Shown: in pieces, positions 6,220-56,599 of the stretch
Numbering within the stretch: position 1 is the stretch's first letter
How the letters are laid out: the number at the start of each line of letters is the position of its first letter
Source of the DNA: Psammoneis japonica
Lineage: Eukaryota
Reading direction: 5' to 3'
Assembly (NCBI GenBank): GCA_008632985.1
Contig: QPGO01000025.1
Location: forward strand, 186,001-250,000
Length of the DNA: 64,000 bases
The notes under the pieces: model-generated
Seen by the model: only the letters and a program-made list of their open reading frames with translations
What the model was told of the DNA's origin: nothing
The model's database searches: none
Made by a program: the position numbers and the translations under genes

Positions 6220-8361
6220 AGGGTCTCACACTTGTGCCTGGGCAGCCCAGCTGTGGCCCAGCCAACTCTGCCAACTGTGGCTGCCTGTCCCTCCTGTGGC
6301 CATTGTCTGTGACATGTTGAATCAGAGGGACAGCACACTCAATCACAATGTCAGAGGAACATGACAAGCATGCAACTGCCGCACACAGACACACACAAAT
6401 GCTGAAGGACAACATGCTGAACCAGCCAGACCACCTTTGCCTCTTCATGGTCCATCACATGTCACTGCTGTCCTTTCTTCCCTCTTGTCTCCTCTCACCA
6501 GCCTCCCGCTGCACTCACTTGCCAGCTCTGTTCCTGCCCAATGTCTTCCCTCCACATCTTCCACAGCTGAGATGGTCTGCAATGCAAGCTCTGCCTCCCC
6601 ACACCAGCCAACCAACAAACTTCCATCTCCCGCCCTTCTTGTGCAGGCACTTCCAACCCCCAAAGTGACCATGCCTTTTGCTGTCACTCCCTGGGACACA
6701 AAACCACCCTTTTCAATGCCACATGCAATGGCCTTTGTGCCATCCTCCAAACTGTTGGCCTGCTCTCCGGCTTTCCCTTTGTGACAGTGACTCCCTCCTC
6801 TGACACAAGCTCTCATGTCAAGAAAACACACAAGCAGCCATGAGCCATGAGCCACTCTCCTGCCTGCTCCCACCCCTTCCAGCTGCAAGACAATGCCTGC
6901 TTGCAGCGCAGAAGAGTCACTTTCAAATGGCAGCAAACAAGATGGTGACATCATTTTTGGCCTGATGGCTCCTTCTCAAAAAGCACCTGACACCAGCACA
7001 AGCAATGAGAGGCTGTTGTCATCACCAAGGCCATTGCACCAGCAGTCAGGCAGCAAAGGATGTTTGTGTTTCAGTTTCCTGGTGTCTTTGAGAAGGCAGC
7101 TGGTGAGTGCATTTGATCTGCCTGCATTTGATCTGCCTGAATTTGCACTTGTTCATGTCATTTGAATCGAAATCTAACTCCATCATGCGTTCTCAAATCA
7201 GATGCACTGGCACTTTTCAAAGGCAAACTGCCAGAAGGAGGGTTCAGCATTTCTGTTGCAAATCAACCACCTGCATTGAGTGCCAACAAAACAAGTCATC
7301 CAAGGACAAAGCATGGCATGACCAATGCAATGAATCCGCGAGCTCCAAGAATGATGCCATCAAGTTGGAAGTGGCAATGGAGAACCACAAGACAGAGCAT
7401 CACTTTGCTGTCATCCTGCAAAAGAAGATTGAGGAAAGATGCAGCTGGCGAGTGCAATGATGGCAGCAATGCAACCAGAGAGCAGCACCTCATTTCTAGA
7501 AATCTGTGAGACTGACAAAAATCAAAAACAAAAAAGAGATGTGTGTGCATTTGAGTCTCCAGCTCAAATGAGATTCAGGACAAAAAAGTGTGACTTGGGT
7601 GCAACATGAACTGCAGCATGTGTGTTGGAGACTGGACAGAGTTCTGGCCCATCAGAATGCAAGCTGCACAGATGTGTGACATGCACAACCAGAGTCAAAT
7701 CAAAACTTCAGTGGATCATCTGTTTGTTGTTTTTGGGTTGATTGATTGAGTTCCTGGAAATTGCATCCCAGTGCCAACCACCATCTTGGGGAAAATTGGA
7801 CGGCTTTTTTTGGCAGCATTTTGAGATTTTGCAAAGCTTGTTCCCTTGCCAAACTTCATGTTGGTCCTGTGTTTGTTGCAACAGAGCTTGTTTGCACAAT
7901 GCACAGTGGCCCCATGGCTTTTTTTATGAGCATTTGCTTGGCTCTCAGTGCCACGTCATCACAACGGGTGGGTGCTGGGTGCCAAACAATGCACATTGAT
8001 GCATGCCATTTTTGTGTGCCAGGCACCCTGCACAGCAATCAGCTGCAGGCACCTGGCTGCCCCTGAGTGCAAATGTGTGCTTGTCATCCTGGCATCTGAG
8101 TTGTGGGTGATGGGTGGAAGGGCTGGTTGTGGACATGTTGGCATCATGCACAGGGCATGTTGGCACATGGCTTTGGGCATCATGTGCATGGCATGTGGGG
8201 TGTGTGGTGCACAGCATGGGGCATTGTGTGCATGGTGCATGGCATGTGGCATGGGGCATTGTGCCCACATGGCACGCAGGGTCTCACACTTGTGCCGGCA
8301 CATGCCAGCCATGGAACTTTGCCAGCCATGGCCAGCCACTTGTCCTCCTGTGGCCATTGTC
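6220..8361 (+). repeat. Dispersed bipartite repeat, two copies
   Basis: agggtctcacacttgtgcc at 6220-6238 and 8278-8296; cctcctgtggccattgtc at 6290-6307 and 8344-8361. Each copy is preceded by ggcatg/ggcgtg-type arrays. Confidence 0.85.
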
Positions 8362-10564
8362 AGCACCATGCTCATGAAGCCATGCATGGCCAAGAAGCTC
8401 AAAGCTGCCAAAGCTGCGCTGGCATGTTTTCAACCCAGGCGGGTCACTCGGGGGGACAACACACAAGGTTTTCTGCACATTTCTGTCACGCAGAACTGTG
8501 CCCAATTTTCAAGCTCCAGCATTGCTTCACTTCTTTCTCATGCTGGTGCTGCCATGTGAAATTGTCACTTTCAAATGCAGCATGCTCCAGCTCAAAGTGG
8601 GAGCTTGCAGCACATGACACAATTGCTTTTGTCATCCATTGCATGTTTCGCACACACACACTTCTCTGTGTGTCCTCTTCCACAGAATTGTCCACACTCA
8701 CTGTTTTGCAAAGCCCAAGACTTTTTGTTTTCAATGCATTCACAGAAACAACAATGAGTGCCAAGTGCATTCTTTGATGTCTGAAAAATGTGCTTGGACA
8801 AACAAGAAACAATGTGCTTTAATGTCAGACAATTTCAATCATTTGCAAAGTTGCCTCTTGTTCTGTTGGTGACCATTGTTGACACATTCCTTGTTGCTCA
8901 ACAATTTTGCTGCAGAGGTTGCACACAGAATTCTGTGGACCCAACCAGCGTCACATGGATTCCCACCCCCCACATCTGGAGCACATCTTGCACACAGTCA
9001 CCTGCCAGGGCTGCAAAGGCAAGAATGAAGGCACTGATCAACTGTTGAGCTGGCAAGTCAATGTCAACAAAAGGGAACCTTGTTTGGCTGTGCTGCTTGG
9101 TGCAATTGCTTGGTTGCTTGCAGTGGCCATGGGTTGCCCAGAAGTTGTCAATGCAAACTTCAAACTTGCAGCACAACAGACACCCAGCAGCGCCGAGTGC
9201 AAAATCATGTGAGTCAAATGATTCACTCCAAAAAGCAAGATGAGCGGAGAGGTGAGAGAGATTGGTGAAAATGAAATCTCAGTCACAAAGAGTTGCCAAA
9301 TTTGCCACATCAGGAGCCCCACATCTTTTCTTCAATCCACCCAGGTGTCTTGCAATTTCCCACCATGACCCAGACATTCCAGCACACTTCTGCTGCTCCA
9401 ACCAGTGCAATGCCAGCCTGCTTTGCATCCAGGGAAATCTGATCCCTGTGTGGAATGTTGGCAACAATGTCACCATGCACATTGGCTGTGTGGTCAACCA
9501 TGTTGTTGAATGAGCATGCAATGCTTCACACATGCTTCACACATGCTCCGCACAAGCACACAAGCACAGTGAGTTCTCTCTCTTGCAACTTTGCTGCATG
9601 GACCAACAATCTGGCCCTTGATCCAACCATTGTCACCTCAGAAGTCAACTCAAAGAACTCCATTCTGTTGCAAGCTCACCAAATGCATCCATGCCACAGG
9701 CAGGACAACTGACCAACAACAACATCAGCAGCTCATTGACAACGCATCTGTCTGGGGCAAACTGCAACACATTGCCCTGCAATCCTGCTGTGTTGCTGTC
9801 ATCTGCACATGATGCTTGATGACGCAACAGTTGCAATCTTCACAGAAACACCTCCAGGCACAACTTCCAACAATTTGCCAAAATTCTTTGGTCTTGTGTG
9901 CCTCCACACCATGCAGCTCAATTTCAGACAACAGCCTTAGATCATCATGAAGGGAGAACATTGGCACAGTGGCAGACAAATGTTTGTGCACTTTGGGGCT
10001 CCAGACTCCTGCAATCTCCTGTGTGCCCTGCATTGAGCTGCACCTCTTCATCCACAGGTCCTGCCACATGGCCTCAAATGATGACAGATCTTCAGGTGAC
10101 CATGGATGAATGTGCTCCCTCCTCTCTCAATCTCCAGATGCATCAGATGCAGATCCAATGCATTGCAGCAGAGGTGTGGGTCTTGTCTCAAATTGCAGTG
10201 GCTGCCATCATTGAACCATTTGATCTCATCTGTTGCCACACTCAAAGAATTGTCTGGGACTTCTTGTCTTCTCTTGACCATCACATCTCCCAGCCTCTTG
10301 AACTTGTCCCAACAGTGCCACAATGCTGTTGCACTGTCATGTTGTGCAGTGCACTGTGCTCATCTTTGCCAGGCTTCCTTGTGATCATCAACGCTGTGGC
10401 CAATGTTTGTGCTGAAGAACAAAACGCCAATGGAACAAGTTGTGACCGGCCAAACCTTGCAGTGCATGACATCTTCCAGGTTTCAGGGTTCTTTCCTCAC
10501 ATTCTCATTGGATGTCACAAACAGGAAGCACTCCTGTCATGCCTGAAGTTGACAGCCCTTGATG

Positions 10565-12430
10565 GCTCACTCAAACTTTCAGAGCTTCTTGCACTGCAAT
10601 GGCAGTCCAGTCTTGCATGAAGTCTTCAAGCACACCATTGGCAGGAGAGCGCTGTGCTTTTAGACTGCCCTTCTCACTCTGATTGGTGACAAAAAGTGCT
10701 GGTGAACATTGAGTGCTCTGGACAACTTTCCAGCATTCCTGCACCCACCAGTCTCCAAAATGGTGCAGCACTCTTGTTGTCCTGATGCATGATGTTTTTG
10801 TCAACTGGGCGCCATTGATGCTCCATGAATGACTTTGTCCACAGGATCATGGCTGTTGCATCATCAATCCCTGCAAGTTCTGCTTCAGGTGTTGAGCTTC
10901 TGGTGTTTTGACATTGCCTGCACTGCTCCATTCTCCATGGTCACAACTCCTCCTGTGCAGCTCTCAAAGTCTGAACAGCGCACCTCAAATGATTCACCCA
11001 CATGCCACTTGACAGCTGGGGAGGTCATTTGCACTCAATGTGGCATCTTCATTTTGTGCTTGGGGCTCAAATTCTTGAGACAACAACTGGCTTTCCCCAG
11101 CGCTTGTTGGCAGGCTCTCTGACCCGTGCACACCACCATGCAGCAACAGCAGGGCGCACATCCACATGTGGCCTCTCTTGGACATGAATGGCTCCTTGGC
11201 CACCCACACATGGAATGTCTTTGCTTTCTTGGTTGGTGATCTCATGCCACCAGCATCAAACAGGTTCTCTCCAGCTGGCATCATGGCAGCATCTGCACTC
11301 TTGATCTCTTCTGAGAACTGATTGATCATCTTGTCAACACAGTTGGTGGTTGTGTTGACCTTCGCCTTTTGTTCCCTGTGGCTGCAGCCCAGGGTCCTTC
11401 CAAGGTGGCCACCACCCTTCTTTGCTCATGATGTTGCAATGACATTTTGCCACAGCTCCCATGCATCTTGTTTGGCCAGCTCAAAAGTTTGTCAGCGGTG
11501 CTTTTGGGTCCTCATTGTGGCTTGCCAATGGGTCATCCATGTGGAAACGCACAGTGTGGTGCTTGCCATTGACCACTCAATTGGCAACACATGGATTGCA
11601 TGGGTTGAACTCAAACTCTGTCTTCTTCAAGAAGCATTTGAAAAATTATTTGCACTGCAGCAGAGCTGCGGCTGACATGCTGTGTGCAGCTCTGATGACT
11701 TGGGTTCTTGCAGAGGACACTCTTCCCCTTTTCCACAACCACATGTGGTCCACATGGGTTGGGGTCAATGCTGGTTGGCATGTCAACCAACACTCCTGTG
11801 AGATCTTCATCATGATCTGGTCTTTGCCTTCCTCAGGCTCCAAGATCAAGGTCTGTGCAAACGCGCTCGGCACATTGGCGCTCATCACATCATGCTCTTG
11901 CTCAGCTTCAACCACAGCTGTCATCAGCATTCCTTCTGATGCTGCTGCCAGACCAGCTGACTCATCCTTGTCCAGCCATTCTCTGGTCAGTTTTCCACTG
12001 CAAAACATTTGCCCTTTCTCATGTTGCCATTTGTTTCTCCGTCAGGAACATCGGAGCAACCACAACCTTGGTCCTCTCACTCAGAGTCATGTCCTTCACT
12101 GATGCCAGTGCAAAGCACACTTGGCTGTGCAGTTGTTCAATCACTTTCTCTCAAGCATCATGCCCCCTCTGGCCAAATGCTTTTGGGCCTTCATGCAGCA
12201 AACATTGTTGAGCAAAGGAAACACCCTTTCCTGGTTGGAGTCGGTCATCAATCTCACAGCACGTGATTGTGCCAGCAGCACCATTGCTGTTTCTGCATTG
12301 CACTCAATGTTGTCCTTTGGATTGGGGCTCATGTTTGTTTGTAAATGATGGCAGTGTTGAGCTTGTTTTGCTCTTGTTCCATTTCATCAGAGTGTGCCAT
12401 CCCTGCAAATCAAACCTTCTTTTCCTGTGT
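10565..12430 (-). mobile_element. Degenerate Ty1/copia (diatom CoDi-type) pol fragment: RT and RNase H
   Basis: Remnant motifs across frameshifts: GKLTREWLDKDESA..ANVPSAFAQT..IMMKI (RT), PAGENLF..FHVWVAK, and NTRSSTPEAELAGIDD..ILWTKSFMEHQ..KNIMHQDNKSA (copia RNase H, canonical YQDNKS). Confidence 0.9.
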
Positions 12431-12565
12431 TCACATGATTTGATGTTGAAGGATGCACCAAAGGTTGCACCGCTCCAGTGGTTTTTCTGCCAGATGCAGC
12501 TCTTGCCTTTTCCTCCAATCTTTGTCCTTCCCATCTCTTGTCTTCTTGGGATTCATCATCATTTT

Positions 12566-12824
12566 CACCAAGTGGACTGAAGTGTGCTCTTTCGATTGCC
12601 TCTCAATCGAACATGTTTCCGGGTGTTGCACAGTGCGACACATCGGCAATGTGAGTGCCAATTTCACATTTCCCTTGTCCTGTGGATTTGATCAATAAGG
12701 CGTCATCAAAATCTTTGGCATCTATTTGGTCTACGGTAAATGTTGTGTCCTTGGTGAACTTTGTCGGGATTTTCTGAGCAGGTTTTTCGACCGCATCGGG
12801 AAATTTGAATTGCAAGCCAAACTC
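12566..12824 (-). pseudogene. rnr: Bacterial-type RNase R (RNB domain) fragment
   Basis: EFGLQFKFPDAVEK..TTFTVDQIDAKDFDDAL..GKCEIGTHIADVSHC..PG..D*EAIERA/TSVHLV matches the RNase II/R motifs DAKDFDDA, HIADVSHY and RATSVYLV. One stop, one frameshift and an apparent internal deletion. Confidence 0.85.
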
Positions 12825-12925: not shown

Positions 12926-13672
12926 CTATTGAGTTTTCTCTTGTTGTTGAATGTATTGATGGATAACAGCTTTCAGGGCTCGATTGGGTATTAAATCATC
13001 CCTAGAAATGGGCCTACGAGTAATCGGAGAACGACTGTTGCCTCCAGAAAGCCATTGGATGATGGCTTCTCGTTCATAGGAGTGTCCGTCTAAATCTATC
13101 ACTGGGTCCACCATGATGGAACCCGTGATTGGACACATCATTGTTCTCTCCAACATGTTCCTCGGGTCGCCATCAGAGCCATAAACTGTTGTGTCTTGCC
13201 TTCGATAATTGAAAAAGGCTCTTGCCAACATGCCCAGAACGCCACCAAGTTGACATTCGCTCTGATCCCTCTCCCAAGTTGTTGTAAAGTCTCTTTCTTG
13301 ATAAATGCTGCCTGAGGCTTCGTCGCTATCATGGGAATGGGCATCGACAGACTCAACGCTAGATACACTACTCGAGGCAAGATGAGCCACAAATGATGCT
13401 TCCTCTCTAGGACCATAGTCATCAAAACCTGGATGACGATAGAGTGGATCCATGAAGGTAGATTGGTGCCGCGCTCTCGAGGAAAATAAAGACACCTCCT
13501 CGGCAACCTCAACTCGAGTGGGCGTCAAGGTTGGATCCAATGGGGGTCGCCGACTGTTCACAATGCGACCTCTCTGTTCCACGCTCGTCAGTCTTCGATG
13601 AGCATTGCTCCTATGTGTCAAGGTTGGATCCAGTGGCGGACGTCGCCTCCTCATGTCTTCCATCCAATCCAT
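12926..13672 (-). CDS. U-box domain protein (putative E3 ubiquitin ligase)
   Basis: C-terminal CPITGSIMVDPVIDLDGHSYEREAIIQWL..SPITR..LIPNRALKAVI. N-terminal RRPPLDPTLT occurs twice. Confidence 0.9.
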   Translation of the reverse strand: MDWMEDMRRRRPPLDPTLTHRSNAHRRLTSVEQRGRIVNSRRPPLDPTLTPTRVEVAEEVSLFSSRARHQSTFMDPLYRHPGFDDYGPREEASFVAHLASSSVSSVESVDAHSHDSDEASGSIYQERDFTTTWERDQSECQLGGVLGMLARAFFNYRRQDTTVYGSDGDPRNMLERTMMCPITGSIMVDPVIDLDGHSYEREAIIQWLSGGNSRSPITRRPISRDDLIPNRALKAVIHQYIQQQEKTQ

Positions 13673-14114
13673 GCCGCTACTGTTTGTAGAGCGAGCTTGT
13701 CATGGCGGCAGCGCCGAACAAGTGAAAGTGATGAGTGATGATGCGTGAGATGGGCGGCAAGGCAGGGGCAAGCGTTGACTCACGAATGGGAAATAAACTT
13801 TTATTCAGTGCGATACATTGAACATAATATTATAAAAAATATAACATTACGTTTTAAAACATTACGCGCCTGCCGGCCTCAACAGCTTTCCACCTCTTCG
13901 GGAATGCCTGAACGGGACCGGGGCAATTCTTTCCAAGGCGGTTCCCTGGGCTTTCGTTTTTGCTCCTCGATTCGTTGCTTCGAGAACTCTCACATCCACG
14001 CCTCAATCGTTTGCGGTGCTGCGTCGTGACACTCGTCCTTTGGTGCATCTGACACATGGCCTTGATCAAAAGACTCGTGTGAAAAGACCACTGGGGGGGC
14101 AGCAACAGGCGCTC

Positions 14115-15431
14115 GATGTGTTTTCATCCCAGGTGAGAAACTTTTGGACACATCACGAGGTTTTCTACGTGTTTCTACATGAGACGTACATTTAGCACCA
14201 AAAATCTTAGTAAAAAACGAGCTCCATGACAGTAAAAATGTGTTTTTCCATGTCTCGAACCACAAACCACAATTCGCGCAAACCGAAAATGGCACCATGC
14301 CGTCGCCATGAACTCGTCCATTCTCACACCAACGGATGTTGTGACTGAGAAGGCAAGAATGCCGAGACAGGTCAACAAGACAACGCTCAATGCGATGATG
14401 TGGTTGAAAATTTGATCTTTGTTTTTTGTTGTGCCTTGTGGACAGCCTTTTGACTCATGACATTTTTGATGCCTCTTTCTCTCTTCCTCAGCTTGCGAAG
14501 CAGGATTCTCATCAACGCGCTGCTCCATCCACTTGACACCGGATGCTGACAACGAAGAATGTTTCCATGACACGTTGCTGTGATTCTTGCAATGCATTGT
14601 CCGCACTTTGAGTCGTCATGGACGACGCTTTTGGGTCGCGCGACAACATCAGATTTCGCTTCCGACAAGAGAATCGTCATGTGCTCGGTTTTGAGGGTGT
14701 GTGAGGATAAAGAATCTCAGATGCAAGTGTGACAGTTTCATCATTGTAAAGCAGAACAATGCCATTGGCGACATCTCAGTGTTGCAGCCATTTTGTTTTA
14801 TTCTAAGATAGAACCAGTCATTTTGAGCGGTGAAATTTTGTCAACATTTCATCTTTAACTCTGCTTGGGCATGTCAAATCACATGACAACTGGACACACA
14901 TTGAACTTTGACGCCACTGTTTCAATCCCATTGTTTTATTCACTCAAGTGTCCCACACAGGTCGACAAATCAGTCGATCTTTGAAATGGCCGATCGCGCA
15001 AAAAAATCACGTGCGAAGTCAGTTCCCCCGATTTTTCTCATGCAAACAACAGAGTTAGAACGCCGTTCTTTTTTGGCATGAGCTCTTTGTGCAATGAACA
15101 ATGCGTGCATTCTTTCAAAGCAGTCAGATTCGGTGAAAGAAACAGCAGAATGGTCTCTCAAATGCACCAGAATGACAACAACGAGCAGACAGCTGTCAGT
15201 TTCACTCCAAAAAATGCCGCTTTCGAGACAGCGCTTTTCTTGCACACACCCTTCAACCAATGAGAATGACAGCTGGCTTTTCAAAACAAACATGTCTGTG
15301 GAAAGAAGAAACGAAAAATCGGGGGAAAGTCCAGTCAGATTTGCTCGCACAAAAAGCACGGCGATGGAAAAGGGACAGACGAAACGTCTCACCTCCGCAT
15401 GCGCGTTTCTCACCTGGGATGAAAACACATC
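14115..15431. mobile_element. Non-autonomous TIR DNA transposon (MITE-like, 1317 bp)
   Basis: Perfect 27-bp inverted repeats (gatgtgttttcatcccaggtgagaaac at 14115-14141 and 15405-15431) flanked by the 4-bp direct repeat GCTC (14111-14114, 15432-15435). Confidence 0.9.
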
Positions 15432-17705
15432 GCTCGAGATCTGCTGGACCCAAAACCTTGCTTCATCCCGCAGCACCAGCACAGATGACAAGACAGCCAA
15501 AAGGACTTTGCACAATGATTGGCTGCAAAAAGAGGAGTGCAATCACTGCAAAAAGCACAAAACAGAGCATCCCCGACAGCACATCTGCCAGAAAGAGCAT
15601 CATCCGCCGCAAGAGCCAGTGTCGGCGCAACGCCGCCACAACAAGATGAGAAGCAACATGGCCACGTCAACTTTGCTGACCCTGTGGGGAAATTTCCTTG
15701 GAGGGGCATTGCACTCTTTGTCATTGTCAAGGGACTTGAGTTCCAAAAGCTCCTGGTGCTCATGCAGCAGAAGGGGAGAGCATGTGGGGCAACCTTGCAG
15801 TGACCAGCCAACGGATGGCATGATTGGGAGCTCCTCCTTGAGGAGACCCCAGGCAAGTTGCTGTGACTGTGAGTTTCTTGTTGGAGCAAGGAGGCTCCAT
15901 TCTTGCTGACAGCTGAGTCAAAGGCTGCTGGGGTGACTTCACAAACATCCCCCCAACAGTGCATGCAGAGACAACTCTTGCAGCCAGCACGATGATTGCA
16001 GGGGGGTGGGGGGATTTTTCCACCTCTGGAAATCTTCCACACATCGCATTTTTCAGATTTTCTGTCTGTCATCTTCTATGCAAAATGGTCTGTGCACAAG
16101 CATCACTCCAGCCAGACCAGCAATGCCAGCTGCCACATGTGTGGGTTTGAGGGTTCCTCTCAGCACACCATGCAGTGCAAGTGGACAAGCCACTTGCTTC
16201 ACAGAGTTGTCATTCGTCATTCATGATGGCCTCAAATGCAACTGCACAATGGAAAATCTTTTTTTGCCACAGTCAATCTGCTGCTGCTTCATTGCTGTTT
16301 GCCAAACAAACGTCGCACACAGCAACCAAGATCAATCTTTCCCGCAGCATTTTGCTGTTTCAATTCAGGGTGAACTCTCCTTTGCCATGCAGAAAGATGT
16401 GCAAAACAAGTGCCAGATTGTTGGGTGCAACTAAAAATGACACACCATGGTGCTGCTGCGATTGCTTCCATTTTTTCAACATGCTGCACCCTTGTCAGGT
16501 TCACCGCCTGTGCCGCTGCAAGGTGGGCAACTCAAAGAGACACCACAGCATGCGTTGAAGATCAGCTTGAACTGCTTGTGGGTGCCATGAGCCTTGCAGC
16601 AATGCTCTGACATGGTGCAGAGAAGTTCAGAGTCAGTGAGTGCCAGCTCAGACATGTTGGTGTGAAAGCACTGCCTTTTCTGTGGCAAACTGCCTTGCGA
16701 CACTTCAAAAGAATGGAGAAATTTTAAAATGACCAGTTGGAGGTTGCTTGGAAAGAAGGGTGGCACTTTTGGAAACATTGCTGTGATGCATTGTGATGCA
16801 CTTCAAAAAACAATCCAGAACACAGACTTGACACAAGTTTGCACACAACTTCCACATTGAAAGCGGGACTTTGTTTTTTCCTTCCACTGTTTGCCAAGTC
16901 CTTGAGATTTAACTGGGGTGTTCTCTCAAGGTGCACTTGGCTGCAGTGGGAGAAAGGAGCAAAAGACTTTGACAAGCACTCAGTGCTGCTCTGTTGCTTG
17001 TTGTTTTTCACCCAAAGAACCAGGCAATCTTTTGTGACAAGGCACACAAAGATTGGAAATGTGGTGTTGCAGGCATGGCCAAGTTTTTTGATGACACAAG
17101 TGGGCACCAGTGGTTTTGACAACCCAAATGCCAGCAGCAAGACACTGAGCATTTGTGTTCTGGCAGTCAGCCTGGTGGTGAACTGCCGCAGGCACGTGTG
17201 AGTGCTGCAGCATTGTCAGTGGGATGCCAAGCACTGGCATGGTGCATTCCAACAGTCAGCTCCAACTGCACCATGCATGGACAAACTTCACAACATGCTC
17301 AATGGGTGTCAGTGGCTGTGTGAAATTCCCGCTGCAGATCATGTGTGATGCCCCAGACACTGGTGTGCATGCGGTGCTTCTTGCTTGAGCTTGGTGTTGT
17401 TCGTTGAACCAAGTCTGACCACAAGTGTTAAAAATGTGCAGATTTGCATGATGACAATTTGTCAAAATGTTGCAAAACATTTTTGTTGTGTGATGAAAGG
17501 CCAACCTCTGGTTGCAAGTTTGCCACACCAATGTTGCAACAACTTGTTGAGAATCATGCATGATGTGTTTCTCTGTGTCCACATCACCACATCTGCCTCC
17601 ACCTTGTTGCCATGTGCCAATGCGTGATTGCATTTCCACACAATCCTTGGTTTGCCAATTTTCACAAACATCATTTTAAATGAGAAAAGCATTTCATCGG
17701 TTGAG

Positions 17706-18949
17706 TCAATCCCTTGTCACGTCTGCAGTGCAATGACCGAGTGCTGTGTTAACTGTGCACACATTTTCTTGCCACAACTCTCTTGAACTAAGCCAACGAT
17801 CATCATCGGACTCGTCTCCATCGGACTCGTCTCCTCCGTCATCCGTTTTGCCTTTTGCGCCTTCCTCCTGCTCATCGTCGTCACTGTTGTTGTCCCTGCT
17901 GCTCTCCACCATCAGGCTGTTCATTGCCTTCACCTCATCCGCATCACCGGCCGGTGCTTTCTTTTTCTTCTTTTTTGCTTCTCCGGACTTCTCATGCTTG
18001 CTTTTCTTGATCTCCGCATGCCACTTTTCAAACTCCTTGCCCTCCTTGGAGTCTCTGTCTTTCGTCACCTCTTTGCATGAATCGTTGGACCAATTGATTC
18101 CGTCGTCTCCCCAAGACACTCATTGTTTCTTTGGCTTCGTGTGCCAAGGGGCAGGCCTTGTTTCTTTGGGCTCCATTTCCTCACCCAATTCTTCCACCGC
18201 CTCCTCCTTGTTCCTGCATGCCCACACCTGCCAACAATTCTCCATGGCTGACAGCGCCAAAGCTTCGTCACCGACCGCAAACAACTGTGAGACTTTGTGC
18301 GTTCCCAGTTTTGACGGTGCTGCTCCGCGCCTGCTTTTGCTTGGTTTGAGGCAGGATGTGATCACAGAACCACTTGTGTGCCTGCTTGTTCCTTTGTTTG
18401 CCGCCGGTGACAGTGTCTGGGCCAAACGGATCCCATGTCGGCACAAACGGGATGTCATTCTCTTCACTCTTGTCACGGCTTGACTTTTTCCTCTTTTTCC
18501 TCCTGTCTGCCGCCTTGAGTTTCTTTTCTTTTTCCTTTCCCTCTTCCTTTGGTGACAATGCCCACATGGACAAAGCATCACCGTCATCTTCTTGTGAGAT
18601 GCGCGCAACTCTCGAATCACACACATTGGTCACTTGACTTGTGGGCCATTGCCTCCGCCCCAATGGCTGAACACACCGTGTTTCTGCGATTGTCAATTTG
18701 CCTTTTTACCACCTTTTTTGCCCATTCCTCCCAAGTTCCTGACCAATTTGAAGTGTCCATGTTGCCGCCAGCAATCTGTTTCTTGACAAACATTGAGACG
18801 CTCCCATTGCTTGCCAATTCTGATGGACTGAGAAACTTCACCTGTGGAAAGAGATCATTTCCAGCCACCTTCTCTGCTTCTGATTTCAATGCACCATGCG
18901 CTGCCGGCGTGCCTGTTCTCTTCAACACTGCCTGAAGTCTCGGGCTCAT
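17706..18949 (-). pseudogene. Degenerate accessory ORF of the type seen beside diatom Plavaka transposases
   Basis: Frameshifted pieces: LFPQVKFL..RRNTVCSAI; KWFCDHIL; GDEALALSAMENCWQVW; WGDDGINWSNDSCKEVTKDR. Divergent from the transposase. Recognised from memory of the family, not from a search. Confidence 0.6.
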
Positions 18950-19457
18950 TGGCTTGACAGTCTCATTTTTTTTCTCTTCTTTGCCGGTTGTGCTGGAGAC
19001 GACATCTTGATCTTTTCACGGCAACAATGAGAGGAGTGGCACTGTTTGACAGTGCAACCGTCGTTTGGGTCGTGTTGAGACAGCCAGGCACTCCATTTTT
19101 CTCTGTGACATTGCACAAGTTGTTGTCAGCAACATTGAAATTTGAAAACACATTTGCACACAACAACAAACAGCCCAACTTGCTTTTTGACATGGCTGTC
19201 ATTGCGTTTCAACGGAGATGATGTCCTGCATTTTGACAGCAAATAAAAAGCACAATGTTCATTGTGGATGCCAGACAAAAAATCAAAATGCAGACATGCC
19301 ACACCTGTGAGAATCATCCCAATCTGGAAGACAATGTGATGTTTGCCAATTTCCCGCCATTTTTTTTGTGTTGTTCCTTTTTTCCCTTCTCATCCACAAG
19401 ACAAGGATGACGAGCATGAGTCTTGATGAAGGCCCTGTCAACATTGTCTGATTTACA

Positions 19458-22400
19458 ATGGATGGAAACCCTCTTCTCTGTCCCGGTTGTGGCCAAAGTT
19501 TTTTGCGAACAGCCTGCCATTGGAGATGCTCACCGACGTGTTGCTCAGTTGCCCAAGAGTTGCAAACCCAAGATCCAATCCCAGATCAAAGCGACATTCC
19601 TGCCACAACAGAGGGGCCACCTGAAGAAAGTGGCAGCTCTTCCTCTTTGTCCTCTGATGATGACGAATCCCATCCGAGGCAATCAACTTGCAGCAGATTC
19701 CCAAGATCTTCAACGAGTGATCCGAGCAGCAGCCCCTTGTTCCCCTCCCAGGATGACGCACCACACGGAATGGACGACATGTCCTCCATTTCATCAAACC
19801 ACAGCATGCAAGGAGTTGAACTTTTGGCAATGAACGATTTGGATGTTGGCGGTGGTCAATCCTTTGCTGCAGTGTTGGACGTGACAATGGAGGAGGAAGA
19901 GGACATTGACGATGAGGACCAACGTTTGGGATCAGGTGTGACGCTCCTGCAGAAGAGGCCTTGGCTTCTGCTCCCTCTTTGACTAATCTTGACGGAGCTT
20001 GCGCAGAGTTGTGCAAGAAGCTCATGGACACACGTGGTGCTCCCCTGGAATTGCACAACCACATTGTTGATTTCATTGAGAGGCACACTGGCAACAGCAA
20101 CATTGAGCTTGGCACAGTTCTGCCAAGGAGAAAAGAGTTGATGCGTGCCTTAACCAAGCATTTCCCTCTTCCACCCAGCGAGTCCATTCCTGTCACTCTA
20201 GAAACCAAAAATTTCAAAACCGGTTTGCCAAAACGAGTGTCAGTGCCAAGATGGGATTTCACAAAGGTTTGGGAACAGTTTTTGCTCGATCCTCACCTGT
20301 GGTGCAGCAGAGAGAACATGGCCGATCCAGACAATCCTTTTGGGAAGTGCAAAGCGAAGGGACCCAGATGACAAGTGCCTTTTGGCGGGTGAGTGGCACA
20401 GGCGCAGTTGCGAAGAACGGATGACTGACCCAGAGAAACAATTTCTTGAGTGCAATGTCATTTACCTCAACAAGACTGGCAGGACACAAGGGATGGGATC
20501 ATGTTGCGGAGAACCAGTGATCATGACCTCTGCGCATGTTGCCTTCAACAAATGGTCAGACAAGAGTGTCTGGAAACCAATTGGTTGTCTCCCGGATTTG
20601 GAAAAGATGTCGTCATCTGCGGCAAAGAATCTCTCAAACAATCGCAAGGCGGAGAAGGGACGCTCGTCAAGAGACTGCCACACTTGCTTGCGTGTCATTT
20701 TGGAGCCACTTTTGGAAGTCATGAGAAAAGGAGGCATGAAAACATGCGTGCGACGAGGGGATGAGATGCGACACCTCCACGCAATCCCGCTGATCGTTCT
20801 CATCACAGGAGATGCAAAAAGCGGCGACTGTCTCGTCGGACGATGCGGAGGTCACAACTGTCGTCAACGTTGCTGTCGTTTTTGCCTCACTGGCTTCAAC
20901 AAACTGGACGACCCATGGATTGAATGCGAGTTATCCGAGGACTGGATCTCCACCAAGTGCAAACCAAGGCCAACGACGACAACAGATCAGACCAAGAAAG
21001 GAAGCACTGGTTGGGCATCTTGCATCACCTCAAGCAACACAACGCACCTGCCAACTGTCTTTTTGAGGCAGACTTTGGCACACAACCACTCGGCATTGCC
21101 CTTGCGACAGCAAGCAACATGATGCATCTCTTTGAAAACGGCACCTTGAAAAGGGCAATCAATTCATTTGTAGACAGCATGACACCTGTGGTCGCAAGTG
21201 AGGTGGACAGCATGGTGGAAAGGATTTTCAGCAATCACCGGTCAACTTGCAAAGCATCCTTTTTGCGAACAAACTTCAAAGGAGGAGCAACGTCGCTTGC
21301 CTTCCTCAACTCTCACCGCTGGGCTGGAATGGCTTTTGTTTTCTGCCTTCTCCTGTTGACCAGCGAGGGACGAAACGCATGTGAGTCATGCTTCCTTGAC
21401 GAGGACGCAGACGAACCCATTGTTCCAGAGAATCGCAAGATGCCCAAAGTGAACTTTGAGAGCCACTGCCAACCTAGTGAGTGCTTGAACGACTCTGACA
21501 ATGAAAGGTCGGAGGAGTCCAAAGAGGGTGACTGGGATGCAAATGAGGATGAGAAAGAGGAGAGTGAGGCTGAGGATGGTGACGACAACCAAAAAAAGAA
21601 AAAACACAAGGGAAAAAGACTCAACTGCAGCGTCTGGCAATTCATTCAATTGCTCGAGGACCTTCTTGTCTTCCACGCATGGTGCAGGCTGGGCGATCCA
21701 CCCATCACAAGCGCAACTCCCAGTTCATCTGTTCAGAAAACAAACAAGAAAATCCGTCTCCTCATTGACCGGACAGTGCAATTCGTCCCGCGAACAGAAG
21801 GATGCGGGTGGAAGCTTCAAAAGCTTCATGAAACACTCCATCTCCCAGTGTTTCTTTGTTGTTGCCGACATGCGATGAACTTTGATGCAGGCTTGGGGGA
21901 ATGTCTCTTGAAAGACTTTTTCAAGCTGCCGTCATCTGCCGCACAACAACGCAACCTCGACAGTTTTCTGAAGCAGGTCGTGTCGCGTGTGGAGGACCAA
22001 ATGAGGCTCAACGCCGCAATTTCAGCCAACAGTTGGATTTTGCCAACTGGGAAAAAGGAATCATCAAGAGTCAGGACGGACAATCACACACTGGGAGGAA
22101 GTGCGTTCACTCTCACCTACAACCGAGGGATCGGCGCTGTGACGTTTGAGTGGAACAGCGAGCATGCTCGTTGCCAAGTTCATCCTGTGTTGCCAAACTT
22201 CATGTCGGAAAAGTGGGAGGATTGTGTTGGTGAAGACAGTGAAAATGCACACCTGACTTGCAAGACAGAGTTTTGCAATGCAACGGGAGGGATGCGCACC
22301 GTGCGCACCCCGATTGCAAAAGCGAAGGACCATGGCATGACTTTGCCTGTGTGACCTTTGGCACACGAAAGGGCGATCAACAGTTTCCCTCCCGTTTGCT

Positions 22401-22730
22401 GTGTTTCTTCGAAAAGGAAGACACAGGATTGATTTTTGCAGTTGTCCATCCAACTGCTTGTCAAGCTGACCAGAGAACTGTGAGGCAACGGCATCAGCAT
22501 GCAGACTTGGTCAGTCGCTGGCAGCTTGATCACAAACGAAACAACTGGCTTTCAACGCCTGAGAAGACTCAGTGCTCACCTGAGTTACGTGTTGTCCCTG
22601 TCGAAGCAATTGGGGACAATGTTTTGGTTCATGAAGAATGTCCAGGAGTGGCAGAAGCGCAAGAAAAGGCCCCATTTGTTTGGGCTGCACAGGACAGAAG
22701 GAAGTGTTGGTCAGATTTGTTTCTAAAATG
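19458..22730 (+). mobile_element. Degenerate Plavaka-type transposase
   Basis: N-terminal CxxC..H finger, then DPDNPFGK, GEWHRRSC, IYLNKTG..EPVIMT..WKPIGCLPDLE, ITGDAKSGDCLVGRCGGHNC..CRFC, MMHLFENG, WKLQKLHETLH..NFDAG.GE and HRAHPDCKSEGPWHDF. Several frameshifts. Confidence 0.8.
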
Positions 22731-23859
22731 GGGCACGCATGTCAATCTGTCATTCACTCACAGTGTGTGCATTTTTAGAGCAATTGCTTCCTCATGGATT
22801 CTATGCAGTGTCCACTTGCATGGTCCATTTGGTCATCCTGCGCCATGAAATGTTCCCTGGCAGCCACAATCGCCTGCTGAAAGTCGGCGCTGTGGTCAGG
22901 CTGGTTGACAGCCACCAATTGTGCCTCGATTTGCAATGCCAACTGCAGGACCCTTTCTCTTGCCACGGCTTCTTCGTCCATGGCCCGGATCGCGGTCCAT
23001 GTCCCTCCCCGCATTTGATCTGTGCCTGGCCTCAGATCACACAAAGCTTGCCACTGTCGCTGCAAGGCAACGTCTTTCCTTCTCAAATCGTCGAGGGCCT
23101 CGTGGAGCAACGTGATTGCATCCTTCAGGATGCGCTGCGGCTGTGTTAGATGTCGCCTTCAAAGGAGTGGCACGGCATGGCAGTGGATGGATTTGTCGAT
23201 GCTGTCAATCGCAGATTGCTCCCTCTCCACTGCTCTGTTGGCGTCTGTGTCAGAATTTGCCCTGAGGCTTCTCAGAAGCAACGTCAAGTCACAGCTGTGC
23301 AGCATGTTTAGCCTGCATTCTGATTTTTGATGTCCCGCAATGGAGATTGGGAGCCCCAATTCTTTTGCATCAAATGCGTTGCCGTGAAGAAAGCGTTGGA
23401 AACTCATTTCCGCTTCGCTGTGATTTTCCACTGCAACAACACAGTCGTTGTCTGAACAGTGTGTCTCGATCGATGACTTGATGCACTGCGCACAGATGTG
23501 CTTAAATTCGCAAGTGGTTGTTGCTTGATTTAACAAAGCACTGTCAAGTGCGGTCGTTGCAGCCACAACGGCACAACGGGCTTCTGCCATTGCTTCAGCC
23601 GATCTTGACACAGCAGCCTTTGCATCCTTTGCTCTCTGTTCCTCCGAACAACGAGCAGCGTCAGCGTGAACAAAACCATCAACTGTCTCCATCATCCGGC
23701 GACGGAAATCCTCAGCAGCGGATGGACGGAGTTCATCTGACATGGTTTTCTTCTAATGCTCTGATTGTTGTGGTCATGGGTCCACCATTGCATTCACCAG
23801 ATTGGTCATGCGTCAGTCACAAAATTCTGGTTTCTGTGGAAATGTGCCAGAGTGGTGCA

Positions 23860-23940
23860 TGGGAGAAGTCACATGCGCGCCTGGTGGGATTTGGAGTTTT
23901 GCACACAAAAACCCACCAGACGTGCATGTGACTTCTCCCA
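23860..23940. repeat. Hairpin-forming inverted repeat (29-bp arms, 23-nt spacer)
   Basis: tgggagaagtcacatgcgcgcctggtggg (23860-23888) vs the reverse complement of 23912-23940; 2 mismatches. Confidence 0.92.
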
Positions 23941-26319
23941 GAGAAATCCTGCGTGAGATTGTGCCGGGAAAGGGCAATGCGGAGTGTGGAATTGATGGAA
24001 GAAAACATTGTGAAAACATGCATCAGGAGAAAGGGTGCATGCACTGGAAAACAACATGGATTTCTACACACACGTTAAGGTGCGTGAAGAACATGTGGGT
24101 GCCTTCAAGTGACGCATGCGAACAATCACAAAGAAACATTCGGAAATGGGGACAGCATGGAGAGAAGTCAGAAACATGGATCCAAAACAAAGTGACACAC
24201 GATGAAGGCGACGGTGACGGGATCGATGAAAAAGAAGGATTCGGATGGAAAGACGCCGGAGACGGTGAAAACAGGCGGCGCCAAGACGAAGAAGGAAGAG
24301 AAAAACAGGACAGGAAAAATGAAGAAAGAGAAAAAGAAGCAGACGACACAATGTCAAGAGGGGAGCAGCGATGCGATTCTGCGTTTCGAGGGACCTCTTC
24401 CTCTCGATGATGTTCACCCAAATGCAAGAAATGCAGTGTGGCTTTTTTGGAACGGTGACGAGGAAACATCCAACGCGGCAGCGGCACACTTGAAATTCTT
24501 GCAAGAGAGCAGACAAGACATGCATGGAATGAAGAGGACGATGTGGACGAACAGGCCAATTGGAGCACAGTTGTTGACCAAACAATTGGTGCACACTTTG
24601 CATGATGAAAATTTCATTGCATGCAATTGCAGTGTTTGGCTTGTCGTTGAAGATCGTCAGTTGTTGTGAAAAAGGCTGAGCATAAAAATTAAAAAGCATC
24701 TGTGTTCAAACATGAAGAACAGCAGGAAATTAACAATTGACCAAATGACAAAAACCATCATGTGCAGATGAGTGGATTTTATGACACAGCAACATGTTTT
24801 TGTCATGTGTGCAGACACTGCGATGTCGTGCACTCTGATGCGTGGTGCAAGTCTGTTGGTGCAAAATTCCAAACTGGGTCATTGTTGTCACTGTCTCTGA
24901 CATCAAAATGCAGCATTGCTCTGCAAGCTGGGACACATCACTCATCAGGGGCTCCCCCGCCCTTGCTCTGTTTCTGACACGTTGAAGCAAGATTCGTTGG
25001 ATGGAATGACACACAACAAGAAATGAACAGAAAAATGGAAACAGTGTGTCCACTCACATTGTTGCAATGTCTTTTCTCAGCACATCTTGAAAAGTTGAGA
25101 AGAAAGTGCCAACCGGCAGCTTGTCGCAGATGCCGCAGCCTTTGGCTTTTGCATCGGCATCGGGTGTGACATGTTGAGATGAGTTGGCTGCTTTTTCGGC
25201 AAACTCTGCCTTGAAAGCAAGCAGCAGCTCAGGATCCAATGCAGCACATTCACAGTTGGAGATTCTGGGTGTGTGCTCCTTTGTCTCCCTTCCTTGGCAG
25301 AAATGTGCCAGCAGACGCAAGATGATGAAAGCTGTTGCTTTCGCAGGCTTCAGTTTGCGCGATCTTTTCGATCCATCGAAGGATGATTCTTCCCCCAAAT
25401 GAGACAAACTGAGCTCACCATCATGATGTCAAGTGCTTGCAGTGGGCCTGTCAATGGCCTCTTCAGGTGGTGCGCTCACGCGTCGCTTGCCATGGCGGGT
25501 GATGCGGCCGGTGCTCATGGTTGTTTTTTGCGGAAGAATCTTGGAATCTGGGAGTTGCATGAAATGTCAAAATTTTCGTTTTTCCCTGCAAAAAACGCAC
25601 AGAATGTCAGAGAGACCTGCCTGCACGCGAGTGCCGCCACAGTCTGCACGATGCTGCGAAAGTTTGTGCACTTGCCACCAAAACGCTGCTCGCACTTTTT
25701 GCCAGGGGACATGCCACAGACACACAATGTTGCATTTGGCTGCAGGACAAATCCTGTGTTTTTGGGGCTCTGTTTGATTTGACAAAATGTCGAAATTCCA
25801 TGGAAGGTTTCTCAACAATTGCCTTTTTTCCCAACCAGTGCTGAGACAAAATGCCCCCAGAAATGCAGGTGGTTGTGTCTTCACCAGACCCCGCCAAAAT
25901 TTCTCGTTGAGAAGACAACCGACTGGATGGAATGAGAATGTTTAAATGATGTTGCACAGTGCGTGAAAAATGACAACCTGCACTCACTCAATTGGGTTGG
26001 CATGGTGACATCAAGCACTGAAATGAACGACAAAACGGTGCGATAATCGATGATGACGACACCTTCTATCGGTGCCTGCCTGTGCGCTCATTTTCTACTG
26101 TATTCAAATTTGTATATCCATACATACATCATAAGTAGTTGCTGTGAGCACATCACGTTGTCACGGCGTTTCTGCACGCATGATGATACGCATGGCACCG
26201 TACGTACGACTGCAAGAGACGCCGTTGAGTTCCCTTCTCGATCCCGAACTCCGATTTGAACCAGTCACGACTGTCTCAACCTCATCGCTTCGTGCGATAG
26301 TACAGATTTCAAATTCAAA

Positions 26320-26910
26320 CCCGCCAAATAGCTCCAACCGCCAAAACCAAAAAAGGCCTCTTGGGGGGACTGGGGCTAGAGACTATTTTGGATTATTGTC
26401 GTTCAAGATTCCCTTGCATACCGTTCCAAAAGCGTTCCAAAAGCGTTCCAAAAGCGTTCCGAGAACGTTCTCATATGCACTAATTCGCGCGGAAATCAAA
26501 CTTTGGAGCCGGTCAATTCGCCAATGAGACATGTGATGCATTGTAATTAGTGCACTATTGTTAGAACTATTTGAGTATGGCACAATAGTGTAAAAGTGTA
26601 ACAGATTATATGGATTTATTGCAAAAAGGTACACCCGTCAAAACAGGTTTCTATTTTCTCTAAGAAAAAGAACGGCTGGTAGAAGTCGCAATAATTTTGA
26701 GTTACAGTGGCTATAAGTTGAACTACAAGGGTGTATTGTAACTGCTAGTATTGTTTGACAATAAACCATATCTATAACAACCGCCAATAGCTCCAACACG
26801 GAAATACCATTCGACGAAATAGGCATTTCGTCATTCCCGTGTTTCCACCGTTCCGGGACCGTACCAAAAGCGTTCCGAAACCGCACCAAAAGCGTTCCCG
26901 AAGGGAATCT
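26320..26910 (+). repeat. Internal diverged direct repeats with an 11-bp tandem unit
   Basis: (cgttccaaaag)x3 at ~26422-26460, with variants at ~26850-26900. ccgccaa(a)tagctccaac occurs at ~26321 and ~26781. Confidence 0.75.
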
Positions 26911-27064
26911 CTCTAAAAGGCCTAACATCAAAAGATTGTTTTTAGACGTTGGAAACGAATGAGAACCCTGCCCGATAATACATGGAACCATCAATCCACC
27001 TACGGCAACAAAAACACTGCTGCACGGCAATGGCGCGGCATCAATCATTTTAGCACAGTGTAAA

Positions 27065-27580
27065 ATGTCAAATGCGCAACACACGACTGTACTACTCACC
27101 ATACAAATGCGCCTGCCCAGAGCCACAGTAGATTGTCTTGCAAGGACAGTCATTCAGAGGCAGACAAGATCGGAATGGATTTGGAACCAATGGGTTCGCG
27201 TCACACTTGAGCACTTTGCAGGACATGCAGTAGTGTGTGAGTTGTGGGGCCTTCTTCATGATGAAGGCAACCTTTCTCATGGGTTCCTGCCCACTCACTT
27301 GTTGTGTGCCCTTGTTTTCTGAATCTGCATTGTTCTGAAACCATTTTGCCGGGAATCTGTGGTGGAGCACACGAAGACACGATAAGAAAATGGTTTTGTG
27401 TCGGAATAGAGTTAATTGTAAATCTGGACTTGTTGCGTACCATCATTCCAATCTCTTTTTGAAAATCAACGTACTGGCATTAGCTTCACCATCTTATCAT
27501 CTTAGATTGACTGGTAACACAGGTTTATGGATGATAATGGCATGCACGGTGACGGTGGACGGCACTGACTTTCGCTTCGC
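27065..27580 (+). pseudogene. PIF/Harbinger-like DDE transposase, N-terminal remnant
   Basis: HFAGHAVVCELWGLL..PTHLLCALVFL..EDTIRKW..IDW*HRF..CTVTVDGTDFR. Truncated just after the first catalytic Asp. Confidence 0.75.
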
Positions 27581-27982
27581 ATCAACGAACCATCGCCGCG
27601 TTCGCCGTTCGACCCCATCTTCTATCTGGTGTCTGGTGTTCGCATAGCCCAAAATGCAACGTTTTAGGGGATGTGTAAAATGAATTATCGTCACGAAAAA
27701 ACACGAAAAAACACGAAAAACAGGGAAAAACGAAAATTTCGACATTTCATGCAACTCCCTGGAAGACATGCACAAACATTGAAAAAATGTGTGGGCGAAG
27801 ATCGACACTCGTTCGCGCGTGACATTTTTTTCTGCAGTGTTAGCTGCGCTACCACAACGTGCTTCGGGGATCTCGTGCCAATGGACTCACCGTCATCTGC
27901 AAGGTCATACTCTTCGCCGGATTTGTTCCATGACTGCGTGGCCGCCTGGGGAGGTAATACGTGTAGTAGGGAGCGAGCTTGA

Positions 27983-56285: not shown

Positions 56286-56599
56286 GATGCAGGAAAGAAG
56301 GTGATACGTAGAGCTTAAGGTACAGGCTGTGATCTATCTGAAGCCGCAACCATCAGTATCGCCATTCGTCATCCCTCATCATTTCGATCCAACATACCAA
56401 AACCAAAACGCGCAAGAAGAAAACCGGGATCCGAGTCACGTTCGTGACTAAAATGGCGGGAAACCAGGGCATGACGAATGACGACCTCCACAGAGACGCA
56501 ACTTGCACAGAGTTCAATGTTGGCAAAGAGGTGTGCGAGCAGCCAACATGGTATGGTCCAAACAGGGAATGGCAAAATCACCAGCTGTACAAGTTATCC

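Follow-up and report, generated by a model that had tools for sequence, protein, structure and literature searches.

The 64-kb window analysed here, a stretch of contig QPGO01000025.1, contains at positions 19458–22730 a decayed transposase gene in which the dinucleotide 5′-TA-3′ (TpA) is nearly extinct. We consider it very probable that this gene is a dead Plavaka/KDZ-like copy in an island of mobile DNA, and that the island was hit by a TpA-specific transition process which favours sites with a pyrimidine 3′ of the adenine. The loss is strictly specific for TpA, its products are TG and CA, the 3′-pyrimidine preference of the sites lost is matched by the direction of change, the affected DNA is sharply confined to islands, and the transposase gene is damaged. 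A first-pass annotation of this DNA had proposed a preference for 5′-TAY-3′ (Y, pyrimidine; R, purine), for which three partly independent lines of evidence now speak: the contexts of the surviving TA sites, the direction of change in tetramers, and the fates of tyrosine codons.

We express depletion of TA and CG as the ratio of observed to expected counts (o/e) relative to base composition, with the flanks (32.1 kb; TA 0.58, CG 0.98) as reference. In the interval of the transposase gene (3273 bp), base composition predicts 200 TA, of which 10 are present (o/e 0.05); at the o/e of the flanks, 116.5 would be expected (Poisson P = 3e-37). CG occurs 131 times against 201.9 expected (o/e 0.63), and the CpG-rich strings that the first-pass annotation had quoted are present at about 20661, 20747 and 20836. 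Its observation that TA is nearly gone while CpG is still frequent thus holds for the interval. A 500-bp profile and a list of TA-free runs delimit five TA-poor islands in the window, with a total length of about 28.3 kb:

4375..12695, unstranded: island I1; 11 TA (o/e 0.021), CG o/e 0.18; both erased
15057..17500, unstranded: island I2a; 5 TA (o/e 0.031), CG o/e 0.33 (low)
17501..25942, unstranded: island I2b; 29 TA (o/e 0.053), 323 CG (o/e 0.63, mostly kept); contains 19458–22730
39937..41599, unstranded: island I3; 1 TA (o/e 0.01), CG o/e 0.20; both erased
56596..64000, unstranded: island I4; 16 TA (o/e 0.035), CG o/e 0.17; both erased; extends past the end of the window

The islands end abruptly, with TA-free runs as long as 1572 bp beside regions that have 11–49 TA per 500 bp, and host genes beside the islands are spared, as seen in a U-box open reading frame (ORF; 12929–13699), an ordinary gene between I1 and I2. 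Inside, the loss spans the coding and non-coding parts of entire islands. When the ten strand-symmetric dinucleotide classes are compared between islands and flanks, only TA, CG and CA/TG shift by more than about 20%. AA/TT, AT and the remaining dinucleotides stay within about 20% of the flanks (for AA/TT, o/e is 1.29 in I2b, 1.16 in the low-CpG islands and 1.16 in the flanks), and the GC content of the islands is 0.49–0.50 as against 0.474.

Decay of CpG at 5-methylcytosine also yields TpG and CpA, and its trace, inferred from sequence and not from methylation, is present in I1, I2a, I3, I4 and partly in I2b. It cannot, however, remove TpA, of which 95% is gone in the I2b family, whereas CpG there has fallen by only about a third. 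That TA loss is no by-product of CpG decay, as had been claimed from the sequence at first sight, is borne out by its near-completeness in I2b, where CG o/e is still 0.63. Further, no 500-bp window combines a CG o/e below 0.5 with a TA o/e above 0.2, so that strong CpG loss is nested inside TA loss. These results support TpA loss as a process that is separate from CpG decay and faster. We read the islands with greater CpG decay as older; these have lost TA and CpG alike.

With TA gone, the stop codons TAA and TAG nearly vanish: I2b has 14 TAA, 6 TAG and 190 TGA, compared to 69, 63 and 171 in an equal length of flank. Long stop-free frames consequently exist in all six frames of the islands, such as one of 279 aa on the minus strand at 19456–20292, and since these are false ORFs, length is no evidence of coding in islands. 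Apart from the relic's family, the ORFs of I1, I2a, I3 and I4 match nothing recognisable in Pfam; the scan of island ORFs outside the relic gave no match at the family cut-off, and no recognisable coding relic in I1. I2b and the low-CpG islands have no detectable DNA similarity to each other. I4 has a strand asymmetry that is not seen in I2b (886 CA and 703 TG; AT skew +0.27 to +0.34 over 60–64 kb), which may reflect the A-rich coding strand of some element or a strand-biased component of the mutation process.

The transposase relic and its tyrosine codons

The core ORF of the relic (20202–21119) matches the Plavaka profile PF18759 with an E-value of 4.8e-4 and 19.9 bits, which is under the gathering cut-off of 26.3. 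An exhaustive HMMER search, whose homologues we label P0001, P0002 etc., yielded 402 homologues of the relic at E <= 1e-3 and 118 at E <= 1e-10; a word-index protein search with the core ORF gave no match. The best homologue, P0001 (1154 aa), has an E-value of 7e-43 and 43% identity. Of seven homologues scanned against PF18759, P0001, P0009, P0019 and P0022 reach the threshold (28.4–43.1 bits), P0003 and P0004 stay under it, and P0151 does not cover the domain. Residues 197–1151 of P0001 align across 19946–22722 in four pieces, in frames 2, 3, 2 and 1. P0151, an intact and closer relative of 571 aa, is 62% identical to the relic over 21029–22288 and 58% identical over 22282–22728.

Judged by these alignments, 19458–22730 is a dead copy of the transposase gene of a Plavaka/KDZ-like DNA transposon. 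The suspicion of a Plavaka relic was thus well founded, although the relic itself scores below the threshold; it would belong to a distant branch of Plavaka/KDZ (PF18759), with homology to the proteins of the family over near full length. The gene and its pieces are:

19458..22730, plus strand: decayed Plavaka/KDZ-like transposase gene; 10 TA, 131 CG; aligned to P0001
19919..20347, plus strand: relic piece 1, frame 2, N-terminal region; tblastn with P0002, P0003 and P0009, 32–35% identity
20361..20933, plus strand: relic piece 2, frame 3, core Plavaka domain; Tyr to His at 20397, Tyr to Cys at 20676, Asp to Asn at 20469
20840..22288, plus strand: relic piece 3, frame 2; YYY to CCC at 21857–21865, near-invariant Asp to Asn at 21116
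22282..22728, plus strand: relic piece 4, frame 1, C-terminal region; residues 423–571 of P0151 (58%), residues 1009–1151 of P0001

Unlike its homologues in the family, the relic has no intact frame, two near-invariant Asp residues are replaced, and only 2 Tyr are left among 959 aligned codons. The three frame breaks lie near 20347–20361, 20840–20933 and 22270–22294. Of the 64 columns that are at least 80% conserved among at least 40 homologues, the relic retains 58, and the other six changed from Tyr to His (20397), Tyr to Cys (20676), Asp to Asn (20469 and 21116), Glu to Arg (21317) and Gly to Arg (21866). The Asp residues lost at 20469 and 21116 are present in 96% and 99% of the homologues, respectively, and we infer that they were catalytic. 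Both replacement codons read c|AAC with the preceding base, the outcome to be expected from CpG decay.

As copies for comparison, we used the contigs of one public sequencing run with at least 90% likeness to the window. Their summed depth, which is not a copy number, is 4,700–20,100 over 17320–24623 and 54–77 over 27944–33900, and we read I2b as a multi-copy family. Among the contigs there are variants with 1-base insertions or deletions at 20363/20366, 20930 and 22281, which are the places of the three frame breaks. Adjacent double differences between contigs and window, with TG in one and CA in the other, occur at 20146/20147 and 17120/17121 among the 40 of 294 variant places that were examined, and are not a total count. 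Such a pattern would arise if copies had independently converted the same ancestral TA in different ways.

A contig joint of depth 889 skips 19444–22467 (3022 bp), almost exactly the transposase gene, and suggests that deletion derivatives of the I2b family exist. The segment 15992–17319 in I2a, which has no TA and is CpG-poor, has a summed depth of 69–119, near the level of the unique flank, and is not obviously repeated at a likeness of at least 90%. An inverted-repeat scan of 13800–28000 found no terminal inverted repeats for a Plavaka-like element, only those of two smaller elements. Comparison of the window with itself revealed no second copy of the relic, only 3 of 330 tblastn hits of the homologues on the window fall outside the relic, all of them weak, and a search for exact 26-base matches of this DNA in metagenome contigs found none.

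The Tyr codons of the relic, which contain TA, form a record of the mutations. Among the first 40 listed homologues, Tyr content is 1.8–4.7%. P0151 has 18 Tyr in its aligned part, at which the relic has Cys 10 times, His four times, and Tyr, Leu, Ile and Ser once each; Tyr to Cys is the commonest substitution in this alignment. As a control, we inspected the same 18 positions in 25 intact homologues, where the 398 cells include 90 Tyr, 56 Phe, 53 Leu, 12 His and 6 Cys. Cys or His is thus found in 14 of 18 positions in the relic and in 18 of 398 cells in the intact homologues (Fisher P = 3e-14), which means that Cys and His at these positions are no general property of the homologues. The eight former Tyr codons named in the first-pass annotation all stand at positions where homologues have Tyr (20409, 20586, 20676, 22315, 22348, 20397, 22336, 22297). 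With a wider definition, by which an ancestral Tyr codon is assumed where Tyr is found in P0151 or in no fewer than half of the 14 nearest homologues, 29 codons are obtained, of which 21 are now Cys or His (16 Cys, 5 His, 2 Tyr, 6 other). Cys (TGY) outnumbers His (CAY) by 16 to 5 (binomial P = 0.027), and the nearly equal numbers of TG (292) and CA (311) on the plus strand of the relic speak against a general strand bias.

It is hardly credible that no mutation took place here, that is, that the DNA arrived TA-poor from a virus or donor avoiding TA, or that TA was removed by selection. The replacement of conserved Tyr by Cys or His, and of near-invariant Asp by Asn, contradicts this, as do the three frameshifts, each at a site of 1-base insertion or deletion variants among the other copies. 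Further, intact homologues have 2.7–4% Tyr, and a TA o/e of 0.02–0.05 goes far beyond the 0.58 of the flanks.

Neighbour dependence and direction of the change

In total, 62 TA survive in the islands. We assigned them to NTAN tetramer classes, counting both strands as one, and obtained 16 TTAA, 17 CTAA/TTAG, 10 CTAG, 7 ATAA/TTAT, 6 GTAA/TTAC, 4 CTAC/GTAG and 2 ATAG/CTAT; ATAC/GTAT, ATAT and GTAC are absent. The classes are not equally depleted: YTAR, YTAY together with RTAR, and RTAY account for 43, 19 and 0 of the 62 survivors, compared to 228, 695 and 367 of 1290 TA in the flanks (chi-square P = 5.5e-23). For RTAY alone, about 18 survivors would be expected at the flank share. The same bias is seen in I2b (17 of 29 YTAR, no RTAY) and in the four low-CpG islands (26 of 33 YTAR, no RTAY), and the 10 survivors in the interval of the transposase gene divide into five YTAR, five YTAY/RTAR and no RTAY. 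The earlier remark that surviving TA are often TTAA, CTAG, TTAG or CTAA therefore describes the majority of survivors, and its caveat that YTAR is depleted as well is also correct: relative to the flanks, survival is 0.32 for TTAA, 0.19 for CTAA/TTAG and 0.16 for CTAG, so that TAR too is heavily depleted.

These counts are described well by a Poisson model that assigns to both adenines of a TA site a separate rate of loss, dependent solely on the base 3′ of each. The fitted cumulative exposures are 2.87 for C, 2.80 for T, 0.99 for G and 0.55 for A, and the residual deviance of this four-parameter model is 4.0 on 6 degrees of freedom (P = 0.68). A model with two rates, 2.84 for pyrimidines and 0.76 for purines, is superior to a constant rate with a likelihood ratio of 93.6 (P = 4e-22). 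The result does not depend on the flanks as baseline, since an island-internal Markov baseline, computed from the neighbours 5′ of T and 3′ of A where these are not part of a YR step (chi-square 48, P = 2e-7), and a TA-normal element in the window (25487–27769) gave the same answer. The data thus support a change of A:T to G:C in TpA that is about 3.7 times faster with a pyrimidine 3′ of the A.

Survivors alone cannot tell which of the two adenines is hit; this is revealed only by the YTAY/RTAR class, whose products are YTGY or YCAY. We estimated the share of YTGY with the tetramer frequencies of the flanks as ancestral, gains derived from CpG split evenly, and a bootstrap over 500-bp blocks. 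The share is 0.73–0.85 in I2b (95% interval 0.59–0.89; P(share <= 0.5) = 0.001) and 0.75–0.84 in all islands, in line with the value of 0.79 predicted by the survivor model.

It might be objected that the context dependence is an artefact of the baseline, with ancestors that simply had many YTAR and YTGY and few RTAY sites, and a loss of TA that took no account of context. The ancestral composition being an assumption, and islands other than the relic family being without a Pfam match, there is some room for this view. We nevertheless regard it as improbable, given that the same survivor bias recurs in I2b and in the low-CpG islands despite their lack of mutual DNA similarity, that it holds against three baselines (flanks, island-internal Markov model, TA-normal transposon), and that RTAY is entirely missing where about 18 were expected. 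Moreover, the product share of 0.79 predicted from survivors was found independently, at 0.73–0.85, and Tyr changed to Cys more often than to His.

Neighbouring elements and flanking genes

The two smaller elements with inverted ends are:

14095..15451, unstranded: 1.36-kb element; 47-nt inverted arms, 81% complementary; intermediate TA loss, normal CpG
25550..27759, unstranded: 2.2-kb element; 39-nt inverted arms, 97% complementary; TA-normal, at the edge of I2b

The first may be a copy caught part-way through TA loss. Over 14001–15000, TA o/e is 0.18–0.19 and CG o/e 0.90–0.96, and of the 14 TA left in 14001–15056, four are YTAR and one is RTAY, which is the expected direction. One contig joins 14097 to 15431 without the 1.36-kb element. 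The second element provides an unaffected contrast, with 86 TA in 25487–27769 and NTAN shares like those of the flanks (15 YTAR, 24 RTAY). In one contig, whose depth of 54.1 resembles that of single-copy DNA, 25486 is joined to 27770 and the element is absent, so that it may be a recent polymorphic insertion. The element lies in bins of high summed depth (about 2,000–2,500) and yet has normal TA, showing that copy number alone does not decide what is targeted. At 26862 and 27231, other contigs have CA where the window has TA.

The flanks carry long, intron-poor ORFs for an HSF-type factor, a calcium-dependent kinase, a fusion of APS/PAPS reductase and thioredoxin, and a light-harvesting protein. 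The latter matches fucoxanthin chlorophyll a/c proteins of solved photosystem complexes nearly end to end (best E-value 1e-94), with about 80% identity in the best match as judged by eye from the alignment. The best-matching entries are diatom proteins, and the window would accordingly be nuclear DNA of a fucoxanthin alga, most likely a diatom, and not of Bigelowiella. In a lipase-like gene, contigs of a run that we call X2 skip 91 and 97 bp with GT..AG ends at 28364–28456 and 28588–28686. This looks like two short introns and suggests that X2, despite its label ‘DNA?’, consists of cDNA. The X2 contigs have next to no cover over 14000–25951, from which we draw no conclusion. Two duplications were also observed: a direct one of 828 bp with 79% identity (1750–2552 and 29798–30599), whose second copy overlaps the start of a PAP_fibrillin ORF, and a perfect tandem duplication of 86 bp at 37604–37774, in a 500-bp window with a TA o/e of 0.98.

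Mechanism and relation to known systems

The process we propose would convert nearly every 5′-TA-3′ in the islands to TG or CA. Its elementary event would be a change of A:T to G:C at the adenine of TpA, on either strand, with rates that decrease by 3′ neighbour from TAC and TAT, which are about equal, to TAG and then TAA. Under such a scheme YTAY would resolve mostly to YTGY, and RTAY, which has two favoured adenines, would become extinct, leaving YTAR (TTAA, CTAG, CTAA/TTAG) as the main survivors. The underlying chemistry may be that of a deaminase directed to the islands, which would turn adenine in DNA into inosine. Among the mechanisms considered, enzymatic adenine deamination in DNA appears to us the most likely one, although we put it forward tentatively, and the islands might be marked for it by chromatin state or by small RNAs.

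Several points weigh against this account. The main one is that the ancestral NTAN and tetramer frequencies were assumed to equal those of the flanks, protein homologues and the composition of the flanks being the sources for all ancestral states. The fitted rate ratio is approximate, as exposure may vary from island to island. In the copies, 1781 of 6320 aligned contigs are at least 99% alike, so that some of them stem from duplication of already mutated DNA and their mutations are not all independent events. The evidence for direction from Tyr codons is small (16 against 5, P = 0.027). The first-pass annotation had claimed, in addition, that the base before a former Tyr codon decided its fate, a pyrimidine leading to Cys and a purine to His. 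For this, we found only a trend, with a Cys:His ratio of 10:2 after pyrimidines and 6:3 after purines (Fisher P = 0.61); the model expects Cys shares of 79% and 50%, respectively. Nor did the back-mutation it had suggested improve the similarity to homologues. Scored as summed bits against a local profile of 45 long homologues, the unaltered relic reached 698.1, compared to 684.8 with all Cys converted to Tyr, 641.4 with all His converted to Tyr, and 626.0 with both; conversion by the context rule of the annotation gave 673.6 and by the opposite rule 656.4. In the conversion of Cys to Tyr, pieces 1, 3 and 4 gained 2–4 bits, and the Cys-rich core lost 22. Blind back-mutation is too blunt a test because it converts genuine Cys and His as well, and we therefore relied on the column-wise comparison described above. 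Finally, a Pfam scan of the 157 ORFs of the window, and of the window only, detected no deaminase domain.

The closest parallel known to us is the chlorarachniophyte Bigelowiella natans (B. natans). According to the main text of a recent preprint (Mettrop et al., bioRxiv 10.64898/2026.01.13.699255), 231 of the 302 single-nucleotide mutations newly arisen in this alga fell into two integrated viral regions; all but one of the 231 were A to G or T to C, and every one of those was on TpA. The same text describes clusters and genes with depleted TpA, more CpA and TpG, and an enrichment for transposon domains; as the agent it suggests a DNA adenine deaminase similar to ADAT2, and it cites reports that ADAT2 enzymes of amphioxus and Trypanosoma act on DNA. 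As far as this text goes, the two cases share a change of A:T to G:C at TpA, giving TpG or CpA and confined to foreign or mobile DNA, and the TpA frequency of 0.0018 in the depleted subgroup of coding sequences of B. natans is close to the level here (about one TA per 500 bp). We conclude from the sequence that the case described here is the same kind of signature in a different algal lineage, the host in our case being a fucoxanthin alga, most likely a diatom. By the account in the preprint, the cases also differ: the targets in B. natans are giant-virus and virophage inserts, whereas here they are a DNA-transposon family and unidentifiable relics; the hypermutable viral region retains 3.3% TpA, whereas here saturation extends over about 28 kb of the 64 kb; and mutation was measured live there, whereas the signature here is read from sequence alone.

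The main text of the preprint makes no mention of CpG, of the 3′ neighbour or context, or of diatoms, and we could not find the TAY rule or the decoupling from CpG loss in print, the figures and supplements of the preprint lying outside this scope. Our literature search yielded no report of TpA-directed hypermutation in diatoms, the B. natans study being the only report found, and a 2025 preprint on diatom transposons does not mention TpA, dinucleotide bias, hypermutation or a process like repeat-induced point mutation (RIP).

Fungal RIP resembles the present case in its dense, dinucleotide-specific transitions, which are confined to mobile or repeated DNA and kill transposase genes. Its direction is reversed: RIP turns C into T, chiefly in CpA, by which the DNA becomes rich in TpA and in A+T (PMC2621366, PMC7296669), whereas here TpA is destroyed and CpA/TpG is made (TA o/e 0.02–0.05, GC above the flank). 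Further, the element with inverted ends at 25550–27759 is spared here in spite of its high depth.

Thymine-side chemistry would produce the same outcome as adenine deamination: a modified T of TpA could mispair with G, giving T to C, with a purine favoured 5′ of the T. On duplex sequence this is the same event, as NTAY to NTGY is RTAN to RCAN on the opposite strand, and sequence cannot separate the two. We consider it unlikely, as no result here favours it and the B. natans preprint, in its main text, proposes adenine deamination with an ADAT2-like candidate.

Another conceivable source is error-prone patch synthesis in silenced chromatin by a polymerase of the Pol eta type. In antibody hypermutation, Pol eta mutates A in WA motifs (W, A or T), and A:T transitions with a 5′ T fit part of such a spectrum. 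This origin is very unlikely, however, since A after A is not mutated here: AA/TT is not depleted (1.29 and 1.16 compared to 1.16 in the flanks) and the loss is strict for TpA. The GC-biased mutations in the two hypermutable regions of B. natans (230 of 231) are likewise all on TpA, as reported in the main text of the preprint.

Least probable among the enzymatic routes is RNA editing with reverse transcription, in which edits of A to I in double-stranded transcripts, as made by ADARs, would be copied back into DNA. Against it stand the membership of the relic in a family of DNA transposons, the extension of the loss over coding as well as non-coding stretches of entire islands, and the nearly equal frequency of TG and CA on the plus strand of the relic. 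ADARs favour a 3′ G and, to our knowledge, are known only in animals; this preference is not seen here, where a 3′ G is among the least mutated contexts (0.99, compared to 2.87 for C and 2.80 for T, with A at 0.55). In favour of such editing, ADARs prefer U before the edited A (bioRxiv 10.64898/2026.01.13.699255, Discussion).

Returning to deamination of adenine in DNA, TadA, ADAT2 and the base editors derived from them act on A after U or T, as would be the case for TpA here. The substrate loop of bacterial TadA reads U-A-C-G and would match TAC; in our data, TAT is as good as TAC (2.80 and 2.87). A literature search gave no usable documentation of a YAC or TAC preference of TadA-derived editors.

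The same signature, saturated and in a distantly related alga, suggests a widespread and overlooked defence. It is possible, if speculative, that diatoms, chlorarachniophytes and perhaps many algae share an enzymatic defence which deaminates adenine at 5′-TAY-3′ in silenced mobile or foreign DNA until TpA is extinct, and does so independently of cytosine methylation; TAY, being like the U-A-C of a tRNA anticodon loop, would then point to a recruited relative of tRNA-adenosine deaminases. The 3′-pyrimidine rule offers a fingerprint that can be tested against the mutated sites of B. natans and against candidate enzymes. For mobile DNA in general, TA loss and CpG decay would constitute two independent clocks by which relics may be dated. 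In addition, such relics lose Tyr, other codons that contain or span TA, and the stops TAA and TAG, by which they escape transposon annotation and yield long false ORFs.

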